The notes below the pieces were generated by a model. That model had not been told where the DNA came from and ran no database searches. It saw only the letters and a program-made list of their open reading frames with translations. A stretch of DNA of 42,163 nt from IMG/VR virus record IMGVR_UViG_2728369608_000007. One strand, 5' to 3'. Below, piece by piece: positions 1 through 41,693 of this stretch (positions within the stretch are counted from its first letter, which is position 1; each line of letters opens with the position of its first letter). The stretch is from a virus (taxonomy: Duplodnaviria; Heunggongvirae; Uroviricota; Caudoviricetes). A program made the position numbers and the translations under genes.

Positions 1-267
1 ATGCGCAGAAAAGAATCAAACGTTAGCAGTTTGCCGGAACTCACCAATTTTGAGGTAAGCTATTCCCTAGTTACCAATGAAGTTTACTTGTCTGCATCCT
101 TCACTGATAACATGGCCTGTATACCAAACTGGCCCTTACAAGAATTTCCGGATCAACTAATATGCATTTCTCGAGCAAAAGCTATTGCCCTAATCGAAGA
201 GCTCCAGAAGACCATCGACTATATGGACGCAGGAATCGATCGACAATCAGGTAGCCTGCTCCAGTAG
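1..267 (+). CDS. hypothetical protein (ORF begins at window edge; true 5' extent uncertain)
   Basis: 88-aa ORF in AT-rich DNA upstream of the 281-aa cargo ORF; no recognisable motif. Confidence 0.3.
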   Translation: MRRKESNVSSLPELTNFEVSYSLVTNEVYLSASFTDNMACIPNWPLQEFPDQLICISRAKAIALIEELQKTIDYMDAGIDRQSGSLLQ

Positions 268-568
268 CTGGCGAGTTTTATACTCGTTCCCTGCAACAAT
301 GGGCTTTTGGTAAGGCACTCACAAATAAGGAATTCGTTAAGGCTTTTGTTCTGGAGACTCTGAAAGATACAAGGAATCAGTTGATGGCTGGTTTGATCAT
401 ACTAATTAATATATTGTCAAACTCACAATATATTAATTAGTGGTAGAACATAAAACCGAGTTCTTGACTTTCAATAGCTATTATATGCGATCAACAACCT
501 TAACCATCTCCTTATATTTTATGAGATACTCAAACAATTTAAATTTATGAGCAAAGGAAAATAATAAA

Positions 569-1414
569 GTGAATAAAAATCCCTGGGATATTCCAGCATG
601 GCACGCTCTGGGCCGAGAAGCATCTTTAGTTACACAGCTCATTGGTTCTGGGGCAACAGCCATAGGTAAAGCCAATTATGCAGACAAAATAGGTGAATAT
701 TACACAGCATTTTTTGGGCTTTCTGTAGGTTTTGAGAGACTTGCTAAACTAATACTTGTTGCACACTATGCCATTGAACACAAAGGGAAAATGCCTGATG
801 AGAATATTGTAAGAAAATTTGGACATAAGCTCATTGAATTAACCAACGAGGTTGATAGTATTTCTAAAAAAATGCAACTATCTCTGAGATATTCACGTCC
901 TACACATAAAATTACCTACAAAATACTTGAATGTTTAGATTCCTTTGCTGATGCCCGACGGGGACGTTACGCAAATTTCTCCTCATTAAGCAGCCCCAAT
1001 TTAACCAATAATGAACCTATTAATAAATGGTGGGGAGAAGTAGCCGAGAGTATCCTTGAAAAACATTATTATTATACAGTTGAACAAAGACGTGTTGAAG
1101 AAAATGCTAGGTTTATCAATGCCACTCTTTCACCGTATACAACGGTCATGTATATGAATGAAAGTACCAACATTATGCAAGACCTTATATCAGCCTCCAT
1201 CCGTACTGGACAAAATACCATTGTTCAAAAGTGGGGAAGATTCTATTCTCTTAGCATCGCTCGTTGGCTTGCCACAGTATTAGCAGAACTGTCTGATATA
1301 GCTTCTCATAAATATGGAATAATTAGTTTTTATGGCCTTAGTGAACATTGTTGCAGTTATATAGTTGAAGATAGTTTTTTAAAAAACAGAAAAATATGGC
1401 CACTTCGCCAATAG
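569..1414 (+). CDS. hypothetical cargo protein (281 aa), family not recognised
   Basis: GTG start preceded by AAGGA about 10 nt upstream; long ORF in AT-rich DNA that abuts the truncated invertase; convergent with the invertase remnant. Confidence 0.6.
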   Translation: MNKNPWDIPAWHALGREASLVTQLIGSGATAIGKANYADKIGEYYTAFFGLSVGFERLAKLILVAHYAIEHKGKMPDENIVRKFGHKLIELTNEVDSISKKMQLSLRYSRPTHKITYKILECLDSFADARRGRYANFSSLSSPNLTNNEPINKWWGEVAESILEKHYYYTVEQRRVEENARFINATLSPYTTVMYMNESTNIMQDLISASIRTGQNTIVQKWGRFYSLSIARWLATVLAELSDIASHKYGIISFYGLSEHCCSYIVEDSFLKNRKIWPLRQ

Positions 1415-1418
1415 TTAA

Positions 1419-1769
1419 CTAGAAAATCTGCATAAGGGGGAGAAATCCCCCACCTGTAATAACATAACTACTAAAATTAACACCTTGTTCGCACAACTCC
1501 TCCACCAGCACGACAAGATGCCGCACACTGCGCCCCAGCCGATCCAGCTTCCAGACAACCAGAGTGTCACCTGCCGATAATGTCCTGAGCAGTTTTTTCA
1601 GTCCCGGCCTTTCGGACTTTGTACCGCTTATCTTGTCTTCAAAAAACAGCTCGCATCCTGCACAGTTCAGCGCATTACGTTGTAGATCTGTGTTCTGGTC
1701 ATTTGTTGACACACGTACATAGCCAATAAGCATAGTGGATCCCTCTGACAAAAGCAGGAATGATGCCAT
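1419..1769 (-). pseudogene. DNA invertase (Pin/Gin/Hin serine recombinase family), truncated after about 87 codons
   Basis: MLIGYVRVSTNDQNTDLQRNAL...DTLVVWKLDRLGRS...GVNF matches the invertase N-terminal catalytic domain; the downstream about 100 aa including the HTH are absent and replaced by 17 unrelated codons; homology ends near 1473. Confidence 0.85.
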
Positions 1770-2257
1770 TTGCTCGTTATTTCTGCATTTTCATAAACGT
1801 TGGTTTGGGAGAAGGTGCCCCAGCTATTGGCGTTCCGTTCTTCTGGCCGTCCGCTGCAATGCCAAATTCTGTCATCGACAGCTGGTCCGGTATGGTGTTT
1901 TTGAAGTTTAACGGGGCGAAATTTTCTGCCTCTGATTACCCTGTGCTGGCGAAAGTGTTTCCTTCGCTGGTATTACCTGAAGCCCGCGGTGATTTCATTC
2001 GTATCTGGGATGACGGGCGAGGTGCAGACGGTGGTCGCGAATTATTAAGCTGGCAGGCAGCTACAAACTTTTCTCAGTTTGCCGGGAATATAGGCGATGG
2101 TGCGGGCCACACAATTAATTTTCATGATGGTATCGCCGGAAATCAGCCAGGATTTTCACGATTTAATTTCACCAGTAACTCTGTGGGTGATGGTGTGAAT
2201 TTTGTTGCCGTCAGACCGCGAAATATTGCATTTAACTTTCTGGTGAGGGCTAAATGA
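1760..2257 (+). CDS. alternative tail-fibre C-terminal (variable) segment, silent orientation
   Basis: GVPFFWPS...YP.L...LP..RG.FIR.WDDGRG motif typical of Mu S / P1-type tail-fibre C-termini; reading frame begins at the crossover site. Confidence 0.7.
   Translation: MMPFARYFCIFINVGLGEGAPAIGVPFFWPSAAMPNSVIDSWSGMVFLKFNGAKFSASDYPVLAKVFPSLVLPEARGDFIRIWDDGRGADGGRELLSWQAATNFSQFAGNIGDGAGHTINFHDGIAGNQPGFSRFNFTSNSVGDGVNFVAVRPRNIAFNFLVRAK
1788..1813. other. gix/hix-like recombination crossover site (left end of invertible segment)
   Basis: TTTTCATAAACGTTGGTTTGGGAGAA; shares the core GGTTTGGGAGAA in inverted orientation with the site at 3610-3635 and resembles hix/gix 26-bp sites. Confidence 0.6.
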
Positions 2258-2850
2258 TGACCCCAATTTTTGATGAAAATGGACTGGCTACAGTGCCGGG
2301 CGATATGCGTTGTTTTTATTATGATGCTGAAACATCTGAGTATACGGGCTGGTCTGATGAATATATTAATACTGGCGTAAGTATGCCCGCCTGTTCCACT
2401 GGAATTAACCCTGGCGAAAACATTCCGGGAAAAGTGGCTGTATTTACAGGTAAGGGATGGAGCCATGAAGAGGACCATCGCAATGAGACTGTTTACTCAA
2501 TCGAAAATGGCGCAGCTGTTACAGTGGATTATATCGGTGCCATCAAAGATGGTTATGTCACGCTTTCACCGTTAACGCCATACGATAAATGGGATGGTGA
2601 GAAATGGGTGACGGATACCGAGGCACAGCATAGCGCCGCAGTAGACGCGTCAGAAGCACAGCGCCAGTCACTGATTGATGCAGCAATGGCTTCCATTAGT
2701 CTGATTCAGCTGAAATTACAAGCCGGGCGGAAACTGACGCAGGCAGAAACAACCCGGCTTAACGCTGTGCTGGATTACATTGACGCGGTGACGGCAACAG
2801 ATACCAGCACCGCGCCGGATGTCATCTGGCCTGAACTGCCGGAGGCGTAG
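2254..2850 (+). CDS. tail fibre assembly protein (alternate copy, U'-like)
   Basis: Tfa-like sequence; convergent with and overlapping the 3' end of the expressed tfa gene, as in G-segment cassettes. Confidence 0.8.
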   Translation: MMTPIFDENGLATVPGDMRCFYYDAETSEYTGWSDEYINTGVSMPACSTGINPGENIPGKVAVFTGKGWSHEEDHRNETVYSIENGAAVTVDYIGAIKDGYVTLSPLTPYDKWDGEKWVTDTEAQHSAAVDASEAQRQSLIDAAMASISLIQLKLQAGRKLTQAETTRLNAVLDYIDAVTATDTSTAPDVIWPELPEA

Positions 2851-3262
2851 GCCATTCAATATCTGGCGCACCGGAAGTATCGACCAGTTCCAGTGCGTCC
2901 AGATAATCCAGCCACAAATTATATTGCACCAGTTCCTCACCTTTCAGGCGACCAATCGCCGCTTTACCAGGCCATTGCTTACTGTTTATGTATTCGTTGA
3001 CCTGATTAATCAATTGCTGCTTTTTCAGTTCGGCTGCGGCAATTTGTTCCTCATGAGTTGGCGGTGGAATATCAATCCATGCAGGCATTCCGTCGATGAC
3101 ACCTCTGTATTTTCCTTCTGGTGCTTCCTTCATAAATTCGGCAGCAACAGTGTCGTCAATTTCGATTCCATCATCGGGCCATTCGCCGGATTCCTGATAA
3201 GCGATTTTAAGCTCCACAGGGAAAAACGCATTTTTATCGGCACTGAAAATATATTTCTGCAT
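2822..3262 (-). CDS. tail fibre assembly protein (expressed orientation)
   Basis: 146-aa Tfa-like protein directly downstream of the tail-fibre gene. Confidence 0.8.
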   Translation of the reverse strand: MQKYIFSADKNAFFPVELKIAYQESGEWPDDGIEIDDTVAAEFMKEAPEGKYRGVIDGMPAWIDIPPPTHEEQIAAAELKKQQLINQVNEYINSKQWPGKAAIGRLKGEELVQYNLWLDYLDALELVDTSGAPDIEWPTPPAVQAR

Positions 3263-3264
3263 TT

Positions 3265-3978
3265 CTACCGTCCTATCGAAATATAACTGAATCTGTATTG
3301 CTGTGAGATATCACTGGTTGCCACACGCCACGCTGAATTACTGATATGTTCAAAATTTACAGACAAAACCTGCGGGGCAGGATTCGACGGGTCTGACTGA
3401 ACGGCATCAGACATAACACTGACTGAAATCATCGGCTGATTAGGGAATGGTATAGGGAAGTGTCCACTGATAAAGCGGGTCGTGTTTCCTGAAAAAGTGC
3501 CAAACTGAACAATATATCCACCTGGTAGCCTGAACCATCCCGAACCAGAAGCGAATGCTCCCATATCCGGTATCTGATTATCTCCTGTGCCCACATTCCG
3601 TTTTGCCGCTTCTCCCAAACCAAGGTTTTCGAGAGCTGTTTTCACCGTGCCGTCCGATTTGATATCGCCAAACGGATTCTTGCGGCTCAGGTATTCAACA
3701 GCAAACCCCGATCCCAGCAATTCAACAAAACCGGGCAGATCACCATTATCAAGCACATCCCGTTGCGTTTTATCACTTACAAACTGGGCCAGAGCTGCAG
3801 CAATAAAGCTGGCCTGCCGAATAACCTTATTGACTTGCGCACTGGAGGCTTTCCCTGCTGTAAATCCAGATAAAAGCGCGGGCAACGCTTCCCATTCCTC
3901 CTGCGATATAACATTGGCATTTCGATCCGTTGCAAACGCTTTAAAGTCATTTTTCGCCATCAGAGTAATACTCCCCAT
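3265..3978 (-). CDS. tail fibre protein (constant N-terminal part plus currently joined variable C-terminal part)
   Basis: 237-aa ORF; crossover site lies inside it at 3610-3635 (codons for [10 protein letters not shown]). Confidence 0.8.
3610..3635. other. gix/hix-like recombination crossover site (right end of invertible segment)
   Basis: TTCTCCCAAACCAAGGTTTTCGAGAG, inverted relative to the site at 1788-1813. Confidence 0.6.
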
Positions 3979-6189: not shown

Positions 6190-6941
6190 CAGTTTACCCC
6201 GTCGGTACTGCTTCCACCGCGCTGAACACCACCATGAGTGTGCGTATCATCGATTGGCTTGCCGTTAGCCTTCACGCTCCCCAAAAACTCAACAGCACCA
6301 GTGATTTTTGAAGCCACACCAGAAACCACAGACCCCACCATGCCCCCCATCCAGGTTAACAGGCCATGAATGGTTACTTTCTCAGAAAAATCAGCCAGGG
6401 GGGCAACCACATCAAGCCCCCCCGGAGCGACAATTTTAATTTTCCTGGTATCAGGATTAAGCTCAAAATAGGTGCTGCCGTCGTCACTACGCAACTGTGT
6501 GGCACTGGTATTAATACCGCTAATCTTCCTAGCCTGCGACTGGGGACCGACAATACAAAACGCATCCGATAAATCATGCATTCTGTCATCAACCGTCTCC
6601 TGTATCCCGCCGCTCTGCCACCAGAAATCAATACAACGATCGGCAAAAACGACAAGACACTCATCCCCAGCTTTTACCGGAAAAGTCAACGTACAGCCTC
6701 CGCCGCGCGGGAATACCACTGGCACATCCACCAGCAATGGGTAATTTTTGGTAATGCGGTTACCGTCGTTATCCTTTTCAACTGACCGGATAGCTGGCTG
6801 CACAACCGCCGTCACCGCGTCAGGATCGAATGACTGAATAATGCCAGGCAAGGCGACACGGATCTGGTTCTTTGTTGTTTCCCGTTCAGATTTAAATGTT
6901 TCGGCAAGATCGCCACTGCGGGTCTGGTCAGTTACTGCCAT
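6189..6941 (-). CDS. baseplate spike / assembly protein V-like
   Basis: 250-aa protein, Gly-rich C-terminus, position upstream of W/J. Confidence 0.65.
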   Translation of the reverse strand: MAVTDQTRSGDLAETFKSERETTKNQIRVALPGIIQSFDPDAVTAVVQPAIRSVEKDNDGNRITKNYPLLVDVPVVFPRGGGCTLTFPVKAGDECLVVFADRCIDFWWQSGGIQETVDDRMHDLSDAFCIVGPQSQARKISGINTSATQLRSDDGSTYFELNPDTRKIKIVAPGGLDVVAPLADFSEKVTIHGLLTWMGGMVGSVVSGVASKITGAVEFLGSVKANGKPIDDTHTHGGVQRGGSSTDGVN

Positions 6942-7001
6942 TGGTAGGCTCCAAAAAGCAAAAAACCCGCCGGGTGGCAGGTTTTATCTCATGAAGAATG
7001 A

Positions 7002-7514
7002 CTATCGGTGGATAGTATTAAAGTATTCAGAAAGCTGATTATCAGTTATCAAACACAACTGCATCAAATAAATAGAGTATTTCAATAACTTTTCATCACG
7101 AACGGGGGCGGGACGTAAATACTTCCCGCCGTGAAAGAGATTATTTCTTATATACGGGATCTGCTTTAATGCTTCAGCAAGAGAATGAGGTTCGATTGGA
7201 GGTTTATCCTCCCACGAAAAATCATGCCTCTGCTGCTTCACAGGTTGCTGACATAGATACTCAACTGCCCTATCGACATTTCTATTTCCAGTAGGATATA
7301 AAGGCCGCGTATCATCAGTAGCGTAGCGGCTCCAGTCAGCACCGATTAGATAATTTCTACGATCAGTTTTTTTGAAATTAATTCTTTTTAACGCATATTC
7401 GAAACGCGAAAAATAATTAAAAAACCTTATAACAAGAGTAATATCAATTCCGCCGAGAAGTTCCTGAAAGTCAGGGTCTTGAAATGAATTCAAAGGATCA
7501 TCATCAACTGTCAC
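7002..7514 (-). CDS. hypothetical protein with RNxxxH (HEPN-like) motif; moron inside the tail operon
   Basis: 170-aa ORF in visibly AT-rich DNA; motif IRNNLFHGG; GC-rich stretch plus T-run immediately downstream of the stop. Confidence 0.6.
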   Translation of the reverse strand: MTVDDDPLNSFQDPDFQELLGGIDITLVIRFFNYFSRFEYALKRINFKKTDRRNYLIGADWSRYATDDTRPLYPTGNRNVDRAVEYLCQQPVKQQRHDFSWEDKPPIEPHSLAEALKQIPYIRNNLFHGGKYLRPAPVRDEKLLKYSIYLMQLCLITDNQLSEYFNTIHR

Positions 7515-7846
7515 TTGCTGCTCACTTTTTTACACGGGAAAGATCCAATGATTTTCGGCGCGTCCATGCTGTTCTGCAGCAGCTGGACGTTCAGGAAAGC
7601 TTTTCCGTTACGTTTCACAAACTCAAAGCCGTAATTGTTACCATCACGGGAAGGCATCAGGCCCATGTCCATTTTCATGTTTGAATAGTCACCATCTTTT
7701 CCCAGAAATTTTATCTTCTGTGATGTGACAGTTTCACCGTTAATAACAGTCATTCCGTCACCGGTCATCGTGTAGTTGCCGCACTGAATTGCAGCCATCG
7801 CCGGAGCAGTAACCATCATAACTAACGCCAAACATAACCGTTTCAT
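7511..7846 (-). CDS. small secreted protein (signal peptide, two Cys); moron
   Basis: N-terminal MKRLCLALVMMVTAPAMA signal-peptide-like segment; 4-nt overlap with the downstream ORF. Confidence 0.6.
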   Translation of the reverse strand: MKRLCLALVMMVTAPAMAAIQCGNYTMTGDGMTVINGETVTSQKIKFLGKDGDYSNMKMDMGLMPSRDGNNYGFEFVKRNGKAFLNVQLLQNSMDAPKIIGSFPCKKVSSK

Positions 7847-36309: not shown

Positions 36310-37071
36310 ATGCAGGAACTAACTGAAATGCCGATCAACTATCCATACCCGAGAGAATCTTTTCCTGACTTTTTGAGGGAGTGTGGGTTCACCAATTTTT
36401 CCCACGAACAGCGTGAGACTTATGACTGCTATCGTTTAACGAATGGCGTAATTGTTAACCTTTACACCACCCGGACCATTCAGTTTCAAGGGAACCCTCA
36501 AGAACGTCCCAATGTTGAAACTGCAATAATGTCCCATTTAGGAACGCCCCCCACGGCAACACCACTAGCCGTAGAACAGCCATCTGAGCTTCCCAAAAAG
36601 ATATTCATTGTTCACGGCCATGACCATACTGCAAAGGAACAACTTGAGCTAATCCTTCATAAACTTGGATTACCAGACCATTTCATTTTGCAGAATACGG
36701 GAGGGACTGGACTCACCATTATTGAAGAGCTTGAACGTGAAATTGGGCAAGGACAAACTGCTACTCGTTTCGGGATTGTTCTTTTGACACCTGATGATAT
36801 GGGATACTCAAAGCGCGCCGGTGAAGCAGAAATCCAACCCCGCGCAAGACAGAACGTTGTACTCGAGATGGGTATGCTTCTTTCGTCCTTAGGGCGCAGC
36901 AATGTAGCAATCCTTCAGAAACAGCACCTAGAACAGCCTTCTGATGCTAACGGGATTTTGTATCTGAATTTCAACGACCATGTACGTGAAACAGTTCCTC
37001 GTCTAGTGCAACGGTTACAAAATTCTGGTTTCGAATTTACACAAGCTCAAATAGCTAACGCTTCCTCGTAA
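36310..37071 (+). CDS. hypothetical protein with C-terminal TIR-like/SLOG-type domain
   Basis: KIFIVHGHD ... FGIVLLTPDD ... ARQNVVLEMGMLL matches the TIR-like nucleotide-binding domain signature (conserved Glu in NVxxExG); N-terminal about 100 aa unknown. Confidence 0.7.
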   Translation: MQELTEMPINYPYPRESFPDFLRECGFTNFSHEQRETYDCYRLTNGVIVNLYTTRTIQFQGNPQERPNVETAIMSHLGTPPTATPLAVEQPSELPKKIFIVHGHDHTAKEQLELILHKLGLPDHFILQNTGGTGLTIIEELEREIGQGQTATRFGIVLLTPDDMGYSKRAGEAEIQPRARQNVVLEMGMLLSSLGRSNVAILQKQHLEQPSDANGILYLNFNDHVRETVPRLVQRLQNSGFEFTQAQIANASS

Positions 37072-40175: not shown

Positions 40176-40372
40176 GCGAGAAACCCGACGATTTACTCAC
40201 CCCGGATGAAGTATGCCAAAAGTTAGGTATTACACAGAAAACGCTATGTGAGTGGAATATTAAGCATCGTCATCGGGCTATCCTGGCACCAATTCGTTTC
40301 AGTGCAAAAGTAGTTCGTTATGAGCGCCGAAATATCGACGCTTTTATTCAAAAATGTCGCAGCCAGTATTAA
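40172..40372 (+). CDS. AlpA/excisionase-like small DNA-binding protein
   Basis: 66-aa HTH-like protein adjacent to the integrase. Confidence 0.6.
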   Translation: MSEKPDDLLTPDEVCQKLGITQKTLCEWNIKHRHRAILAPIRFSAKVVRYERRNIDAFIQKCRSQY

Positions 40373-41693
40373 CCTCGCCGCCGTAGCAATGCCACCTGCG
40401 CAAGTATGCTCCGCTCGTGAGCCTCGAAAGCTTCGCGCTTCAACGCAATCTCTTCCTGTAAAATCTCATCAGAAAAGTCGTAATGTTCTGCCATCGGGTC
40501 ATCTGACTTGCTGGAGTGGTGAAGGCAAAGGAGGCTGATTTCCCTTCGGTCTGAGCGGGAATAGCCTCTTTCCTTCATCAAGGCAATAACATTGCTCTTA
40601 AGGAATTTACGGCACATCGTATTAAATGCACCGTCTTTCCCTTTAACAGTCCCATCATGTTTTATTCCTTTTACAGCCCCGTCCGGGCTGTATGTTTTCA
40701 CCAGCTTATCCAGTGATCGTTTTGAAAATGGCTGCATTGGATCACGTGGCTGCAAAAATACATAATCCCTGTTGCACTCAGGAACTGAATCACGCCAGGC
40801 TTTCTGCTCGTCGATAATCCGCCGGATCTCAGGGGTTATCGGCAGGCGGAAAGCCTTTTGTGTTTTCATAGCCCCTCGCATGCCGATAACCCCTTCCGGA
40901 TAAACAATTTCACCAGCCTCCTCGTGAACGTAGTCCCAGCGCAGGTTATGGACATTAATCGGACGAACACCAGTGATGATCATGAAGCGAACAGCATTCT
41001 TCTGGTGTACAGAGGTGCAGGCAGCAACATTGAGCCAGAGTCGGGCGATTGATTCAATATCGGTAAAAAGCCGTGTGGGGGTAGGTTTCTGTACGCGGGA
41101 GGAAACATAATCATCTGGCAGACTGGCGGCAACATTGCGGCCGTTGCAAAGAGTAGGTGCGCAGAACTTCCAGAACCGACGGAGCTCGGCAAACAACTCC
41201 AGGGCGTTATTGTTCGAGCGAGTAGCGATCCACTCGTCCAGCACTTCCACCAGCCGATTGTATGTTACGTCGCTGAACACCTCGCGCTCGCCGAACGTTG
41301 CTTTAATCCGGTCGATACGCACCCCGTAGGTTGTGAAACTGTCCGCAGGCCACCGTCAGCCATACCTAGCGCTTTTTCGCGCGCCAGCTGGATAGCGAGC
41401 TCCGGCCACTCGCCGAGCTTTTTACCTTTGAGGCCCATCTTTTTTGGAAACTCGGCGTAAAATGTAACCTTACCGGCTTTGCTGAAATCGATACGGAGAT
41501 AGTTCTCTTTTTCGTATTTGGAACGGCGAGCCACGCCGGAAGCAGCGAGGATGATTTTGGCGGCAGCAACACAGATTTTCATGTGTGCGCTGGTATAGGG
41601 GGGTTTACAGGCGTCCCATTTTTCAGATGCGGCTAAAACATCGTCATTATTGGGGCTATCCGGATTATGTGTTACAGTGCGCGGCATTCTCAA
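40369..41693 (-). pseudogene. tyrosine integrase, reading frame interrupted (two overlapping ORFs 41265-41693 and 40369-41322); likely true start near 41582
   Basis: N-terminal arm-binding-type domain in one frame and catalytic domain in another; frames switch at a CCCC run near 41322-41325. Confidence 0.65.

Follow-up and report, generated by a model that had tools for sequence, protein, structure and literature searches.

Does a phage host-range switch stop switching once it has lost its own recombinase? The question is raised by a tail-fibre locus in the IMG/VR virus record IMGVR_UViG_2728369608_000007 (Caudoviricetes), a stretch of 42,163 nucleotides that we refer to throughout as the window. 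Two opposed sets of fibre-tip and assembly (tfa) genes lie here between inverted recombination sites, beside a truncated DNA invertase gene, pin, and an earlier note made from these letters had described the arrangement as a Mu G-segment-like cassette frozen by loss of its invertase. Our analysis confirmed that observation and supported its interpretation in part: the switch is best described as an orphan, not as frozen, and most likely still operates in any cell that contains a compatible invertase. The window is Escherichia coli DNA and corresponds, apart from two substitutions and one 79-nt deletion, to the yfhL-yfhH region of strain 22AR0747 (NZ_CP195459.1). In the RefSeq annotation of the 22AR0747 region, a complete-looking 42-kb prophage between yfhL and yfhH comprises modules for a tyrosine integrase, replication (family A DNA polymerase, SNF2, VRR-NUC, DUF2800/DUF2815 and primase-like genes), lysis, terminase, head, contractile tail and baseplate, the latter of the DUF2612/Phage_Wedge1 kind. 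The element is a temperate myovirus-type prophage, and its tail-fibre region is located at the yfhH end.

To define the switch itself, we examined the inverted repeat in the fibre region, whose arms at 1795-1814 and 3609-3628 (20 nt, 95% complementary, 15 identical bases in common) coincide with two 26-bp sites bounding the following segment:

1788-1813, minus strand: pin-proximal pix site, TTCTCCCAAACC-AA-CGTTTATGAAAA, central dinucleotide at 1800-1801
3610-3635, plus strand: pin-distal pix site, inside the fibre gene, TTCTCCCAAACC-AA-GGTTTTCGAGAG, central dinucleotide at 3622-3623
1801-3622, no strand assigned: invertible segment, 1822 bp between the central dinucleotides

Both sites have a 12-2-12 layout, with 12-bp half-sites around a 2-bp core that is AA in each. 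A degenerate 26-mer covering both matched the 42-kb window at these two places only, and none of 100 shuffled sequences contained any match (0/100), in agreement with the earlier proposal that inverted 26-bp sites at these positions bracket a 1.8-kb segment. Alignment with known sites revealed that the two are base-for-base the pix sites of the E. coli K-12 prophage e14, and they are likewise identical to those of three E. coli loci besides K-12 e14; the proximal site is also identical in Ceylon31, DEC5B and O111:H11 8D. The gene order parallels that of e14 as well: a ymfQ-like baseplate gene, fibre, tfa, tfa', fibre', pin and cargo. The sequence thus identifies the locus as an e14-type P segment and places it in the Din family of switches (Gin, Cin, Pin and Hin). 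The comparison with the Mu G segment was thus right in kind, but the identity of the pix sites with those of K-12 e14 makes the e14 P segment the precise identity.

The coding content of the segment is as follows:

3265-3960, minus strand: expressed fibre gene, 231 amino acids (aa), Pfam Gp53-like_C, tail-fibre PHROGs
3623-3960, minus strand: constant N-terminal part of the fibre, outside the segment
3265-3622, minus strand: variable gp53-like C-terminus, inside the segment
2822-3262, minus strand: tfa paired with the expressed tip, 146 aa, Pfam Caudo_TAP (E 9e-34)
1796-2257, plus strand: silent alternative fibre C-terminus of collar type, weak Collar match, PHROG tail fibre / tail collar fibre (E 4e-53)
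2254-2850, plus strand: tfa paired with the silent tip, 198 aa as an open reading frame (ORF; 197 aa in RefSeq), Pfam Caudo_TAP (E 5e-26), phrog_105

Open reading frames and domain or PHROG matches therefore agree with the earlier assignment of an expressed tip with its tfa to the minus strand and of a silent tip with its tfa to the plus strand. The silent C-terminus, labelled 'phage tail protein, missing N-terminus' in RefSeq, is promoterless; an ORF starting at the ATG at 1760 gives it a 12-residue leader that is coded outside the segment. The core common to both sites, GGTTTGGGAGAA, encodes G-L-G-E in either fibre frame, and in-silico inversion of 1801-3622 produces an in-frame fibre of 264 aa, which is the length of the annotated fibre in genomes that carry the segment in the opposite orientation. 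The locus hence has two opposed fibre tip and tfa sets inside the segment and a constant N-terminus outside it, with both fusions in frame, and the GLGE junction and in-frame exchange of the C-terminus predicted from the window were borne out.

The invertase gene next to the proximal site is incomplete, and its surroundings are described by two further features:

1419-1733, minus strand: pin stub, consisting of 89 pin codons (1467-1733), 15 unrelated codons and a stop
284-1466, plus strand: replacement block, 36% GC compared with 49% for the whole window, with a 281-aa ORF at 569-1414 and a terminator-like hairpin at 1435-1452

In alignments with the K-12 and Ceylon31 genes, homology to pinE stops after 267 nt, corresponding to 89 of 184 codons, so that the truncation reported previously is real, although its length is 89 codons and not 87. 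The stub matches only positions 2-97 of the 145 in the Pfam Resolvase domain, the C-terminal portion of its catalytic domain being lost, and is devoid of the HTH_7 DNA-binding domain; a complete small serine invertase, with a Resolvase catalytic domain plus HTH_7, is not encoded at the locus. RefSeq designates the stub a pseudogene ('recombinase family protein, missing C-terminus'), and no other invertase is annotated within the window, as judged from the RefSeq annotation of the matching 22AR0747 region. Since pin is cut after codon 89, the locus makes no invertase, while both sites and the enhancer region are still in cis, and inversion would require an enzyme acting in trans, as the earlier note had argued. 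The same stub junction occurs in approximately 44 independent complete genomes from several E. coli lineages, which implies that the truncation is old and disposes of the suspicion that it might be an assembly artefact.

Comparison with O55:H7 strain DEC5B shows how the gene was lost. In DEC5B a prophage of this family occupies the identical chromosomal position; its pinE is intact (184 aa), and beyond it come a gene for a 215-aa cargo protein and the 88-aa terminal ORF that the window also has. The window is homologous to DEC5B over 1-283 and from approximately 1467 onwards, and unrelated between. The 3' half of pin was thus removed by a cargo swap, in which an AT-rich gene encoding the 281-aa protein took the place of the earlier cargo. 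The last 29 nt of pin homology in the stub (1467-1495, approximately 10 codons) contain seven mismatches to pinE, compared with only a few in the preceding ~240 nt, a pattern compatible with a junction formed by recombination with another pin allele.

To determine whether the orientation of the segment varies among carriers of this stub, we compared complete genomes. A 4.7-kb query across the locus was matched end to end in three of them, 22AR0747, MSB1_6C and 1296KP, and many others matched it at 100% identity in two pieces that add up to just 62% of its length; the 38% left uncovered is the segment. NZ_AP022003.1 is one of 18 genomes in which the segment stands as an exact reverse complement between the same flanks and beside the same stub. 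Junction-specific queries accordingly gave three genomes in the orientation of the window and 18 in the opposite one, all belonging to a sequence type 38-like (ST38-like) group and all with an identical stub, at 99.9-100% identity. The inversion breakpoints lie inside the pix sites, and the backgrounds on which the opposite orientations occur are 100% identical over 4.7 kb and, in comparison with prophage records, over 12 kb. One more ST38-like genome, 82.0312 (NZ_CP122451.1), also shows the majority orientation, but its silent cassette is another one. A second lineage, of phylogroup-B1 type, with nine carriers compared with 22 in the ST38-like group, repeats the pattern: O111:H11 8D and O26 97-3250 have the stub together with a different cassette, whose two copies are 100% identical once one of them is reverse-complemented. 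On these sequence comparisons, the simplest reading is that inversion took place after truncation, at least once per lineage. Strain C11 was considered as a third lineage and left out of the orientation comparison; its tail module differs, being of the e14 type.

Rather than the single orientation that a frozen state would predict, both orientations thus occur with identical flanks and stub (3 versus 18 genomes), and likewise in the second lineage, and the earlier conclusion that the cassette was frozen by loss of its invertase is unsupported. We nevertheless weighed the possibility that the locus is a relic in which no inversion has taken place since pin was lost, the two orientations either predating the truncation or having arisen when a block of stub plus cargo recombined into prophages that already differed. 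The stub is indeed unable to encode an active enzyme, and recombination does shuffle this area, given that identity across carriers falls to about 91% over window positions 1000-1815, compared with at least 98.4% in the adjoining cargo gene; this drop suggests that the module boundary has recombined more than once with other pin alleles. Moreover, in ten of the 18 genomes with the opposite orientation no chromosomal gene of pinE or pinQ type was detectable, and the switch in these is probably static. Against a relic, however, stand the occurrence of both orientations on 100% identical backgrounds and in two lineages with different cassettes, the intact sites and enhancer region, and the presence of compatible invertases in the same genomes that have the minority orientation. 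In addition, trans inversion of a segment in a prophage with a truncated invertase has been directly observed in sequencing reads (PMC4134206). Overall, we regard a relic as unlikely.

To assess which invertases might act on the orphan segment, we counted chromosomal copies in the carrier genomes using chimeric queries, each composed of a unique flank and a test sequence, and scored the matching places per record; as a control, the flank alone was unique in all carriers. The C-terminal half of a pinE-type gene, which is absent from the stub, is present in one further chromosomal copy in 22AR0747 and MSB1_6C, and these queries found none in 1296KP or in 17 of the 18 opposite-orientation chromosomes. 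1296KP and eight of the 18 opposite-orientation genomes have a pinQ/R-type gene, and neither a pinE-type nor a pinQ-type gene was detected on the chromosome of the remaining ten; WP3-W18-ESBL-08, U1 and KKa019 are carriers of this invertase-free kind. In 22AR0747 the additional gene is an intact pinE (184 aa, record positions 3017229-3017783) in a complete-looking e14-like prophage at icd, which also contains mcrA and a P segment of its own and is located 1.64 Mb from the orphan locus. Its distal pix site is identical to that of the window and its proximal one has a single mismatch. MSB1_6C contains the same e14-like element at 100% identity. The search for an intact Pin homologue elsewhere in the genome, which the earlier note had recommended, was therefore productive in the nearest relatives of the window, with a 184-aa PinE in 22AR0747 and MSB1_6C and a gene of pinQ type in 1296KP.

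The e14-like prophage of 22AR0747 (NZ_CP195459.1, 3015896-3050000) is full length, with head, tail, lysis and regulatory genes, whereas K-12 retains only a 15-kb remnant. Its P segment has the same arrangement as the orphan, and the half containing the gp53-like tip and the 146-aa tfa looks near-identical, with a handful of mismatches counted by eye. An alternative, P2-like origin of the extra invertase was rejected, as the ST38-like genomes contain no P2-type sheath, and 22AR0747 was not among the top matches of a query combining the P2 sheath with the invertase.

Inversion by this family of enzymes is assisted by an enhancer, and the stub preserves a candidate for one:

1644-1715, minus strand: enhancer-homologous stretch (predicted Fis enhancer), corresponding to pin nt 19-90, at 85-157 bp from the proximal site's centre

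The P1 record annotates an 'enhancer of Cin-mediated C-segment inversion' at cin nt 19-90. The corresponding stretch of pin is retained in the stub, with three mismatches to K-12 pinE and, by an estimate made by eye, ~80% identity to P1 cin. The distance to the proximal site can be compared with a spacing of ~100 bp from hixL to the enhancer in the Hin system (PMC3798978); in P1, where cin reads towards the C segment, the enhancer lies ~500 bp from cixL (P1 record).

Taken together, we favour the reading, to which we assign a probability of roughly 0.78, that the locus is an orphan e14-type P-segment host-range switch, static in cells that have no compatible invertase and flipped in trans in cells that do. 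The late operon would read from the baseplate genes into the constant fibre N-terminus (3960 to 3623) and then into whichever tip and tfa face it, which in the present state would be the gp53-like tip with the 146-aa Tfa and in the inverted state the collar-type tip with the 197-aa Tfa. A serine invertase would recombine the two 26-bp pix sites, cleaving at the central AA, and a Fis-bound enhancer in the first 90 nt of pin would assist. The gene was cut after codon 89 when the AT-rich cargo gene displaced the former cargo together with the 3' half of pin. From then on, the enzyme would be supplied in trans, for example as PinE of the e14-like prophage at icd or possibly as an enzyme of PinQ/PinR type; the flipping enzyme is presumably one of these, and flipping may continue in the source strain.

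Several points weigh against this reading. Genome assemblies give one orientation each, so that the 3 versus 18 count compares genomes and carries no switching rate, and the invertase counts cover chromosomal genes only. The association between pinE-type genes and orientation (2/3 versus 1/18; Fisher one-sided p = 0.04, uncorrected for phylogeny) is weak, and becomes 2/3 versus 2/19 when 82.0312 is added. Furthermore, 22AR0747 and MSB1_6C are probably sisters, and their identical e14-like element may represent a single event. Both 097H6 and 82.0312 have pinE-type genes, two copies in the latter, and yet show the majority orientation, a pattern that is compatible with reversible flipping and gives it no positive support. 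An intact invertase in the source genome of the window is surmised from its nearest relatives and not seen, and the enhancer role of the retained stretch is predicted from homology only. The invertase content of these genomes is consistent with flipping in trans and does not prove it.

The biological output of the switch could be broader than host range. In a lysogen, the relevant product might be the short pin-proximal ORF (1760-2257), acting, like the orientation-dependent StfE2 of e14, as a block to the adsorption of other phages; this would add to the host-range role and not replace it. In the opposite orientation, this ORF becomes a 132-aa gp53-like version that RefSeq calls as a coding sequence, its ATG and leader lie in sequence conserved with K-12 e14, and the chimeric StfE2 of K-12 has been reported to inhibit T2 adsorption (PMC12529663). 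However, the C-terminal domains here are unlike those of K-12 StfP and StfE, and the adsorption claim derives from one study of a different allele. Such a function would seem improbable for the window's product. Far less credible is an origin of the inversions in RecA-dependent homologous recombination, with the short inverted repeats as substrate and no site-specific invertase involved: the arms do have 15 identical bases in common (20 nt at 95%), but homology of 15-20 bp is far below the length of an efficient RecA substrate, the repeats are bona fide pix sites of 12-2-12 layout with identical AA cores, and the same precise exchange is seen in the second lineage.

Within the orphan-switch reading, a further and doubtful extension is that the pin stub has been kept as more than debris, the switch being a 'client' of the invertases of co-resident prophages. 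In the ~44 genomes with the junction, the cargo-linked block always spares the promoter-proximal 267 nt of pin, including the enhancer region. If this extension were true, host range or the StfE2-like product would change only when a prophage of e14 or Qin/Rac type is present or induced, which would constitute a form of cross-prophage regulation.

Several observations on the cassette and its neighbours deserve mention in their own right. The exact 146-aa Tfa is encoded in thousands of assemblies and in three tail architectures, namely the prophage family of the window, e14/Mu-like baseplates and P2-like tails, and in all three it always lies within an invertase-associated cassette. The invertible cassette therefore travels as a unit among unrelated myovirus tails. 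A P2-like query comprising fibre tip, invertase and sheath gene was matched over at least 80% of its length in at least 630 of 5426 complete genomes. The locus of 82.0312 (6761-7640) has prophage and stub in common with the window and differs in its silent pin-proximal cassette, where another gp53-like/tfa allele is found. With the rest of the locus 100% identical, such a cassette replacement suggests that different prophages exchange material between their P segments. The 281-aa cargo protein has 486 homologues, and the best 120 of these 486 are 56-74% identical and come from Gamma- and Alphaproteobacteria; the family is well conserved and has no annotation. The gene occupies the position of mcrA in e14, and an Enterobacter homologue is located directly after a type I restriction-modification operon, within an island bounded by an integrase. 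A defence role for this protein would be plausible.

Elsewhere in the prophage, the integrase gene is split by the 79-nt deletion, a frameshift flanked by 7 nt of microhomology (window 41339-41345) that leaves ORFs at 40369-41322 and 41265-41693, both on the minus strand. The deletion is private to the window DNA, the integrase being intact (465 aa) in all of the at least 21 closely related complete genomes, and prophage excision may have been lost in the source strain through it. As none of the genomes in the RefSeq complete-genome set shares the deletion, the source genome lies outside that set. A TIR domain-containing protein is annotated in 22AR0747 at the equivalent of window position ~36310-37071 (plus strand), in the early/replication region adjoining the DNA polymerase gene, and could be a defence or counter-defence gene. 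Three GenBank phage records, ON470579.1, ON470588.1 and ON470593.1 (vB_EcoM-606R2, -611R5 and -683R1), represent the same prophage in the opposite orientation, and the truncated pin in them carries the plain label 'DNA invertase'. We rejected ON470579 and similar records as proof of virion production: they open with the host genes tadA, yfhB and yfhH and are therefore predicted prophage regions, not packaged DNA.

Among known systems, the closest is the P segment of K-12 e14 with its invertase PinE (Plasterk and van de Putte, 1985, as cited in PMC12529663), which has the same 26-bp sites, the same gene order and a segment of 1797 bp compared with 1822 bp here, and whose pin 5' part, as far as about codon 80, is set apart from that of the window by a few substitutions only. 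Unlike in e14, pin is cut here after codon 89 and the cargo is the 281-aa protein instead of mcrA. Whereas e14 resides at icd, the host element here is a 42-kb prophage at yfhL/yfhH with another baseplate module and other fibre-tip alleles. The Mu G/Gin and P1 C/Cin systems follow the same logic: the constant N-terminus lies outside and the alternative tips and tfa genes inside, the sites are of 26 bp, and the 5' part of the invertase gene contains an enhancer. Their segments are larger, however (3 and 4.2 kb), and they have kept their own invertases.

Trans action among the Din invertases is long established. According to the titles of two studies cited in PMC12529663 (refs 64-65), Pin complements Mu gin, acts on hix and drives flagellar phase variation. 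In prophage Phi4 of E. coli EC958 (ST131), the invertase is truncated and has no HTH domain, both orientations were present in PacBio reads, and trans action by the invertase of another prophage with near-identical sites was proposed (Forde et al., 2014, PMC4134206). The truncated invertase and the two orientations resemble the present case; the prophage is a different one, its segment is 3106 bp, its sites are of the TTATCGAATACCTC-GGTTTACAGGAA type, and the evidence consists of reads from one culture, whereas ours is a comparison of genomes. More recently, PinQ of prophage Qin was found to act in trans on the e14 P segment and invert it, with 33% of 562 genomes in the inverted state (Kirigo et al., 2025, PMC12529663). 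There, as is proposed here, one prophage's invertase flips the P segment of another, and both orientations are common among sequenced genomes; in that case, however, the element retains its own intact pinE, and StfE2-mediated defence against T2 is the reported phenotype.

Since trans flipping of a segment with a truncated invertase and trans inversion by PinQ were both reported previously, the phenomenon is already documented and the gain incremental. What the present locus adds is solely a natural series of near-isogenic strains with no compatible chromosomal invertase detected, with a PinQ-type gene only, or with PinE. It would provide a natural example of a host-range switch that has outlived its own recombinase and is run by the enzyme of a neighbour. 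For annotation, a 'truncated invertase' does not mean a 'fixed orientation', and assemblies of such prophages may differ in orientation alone.

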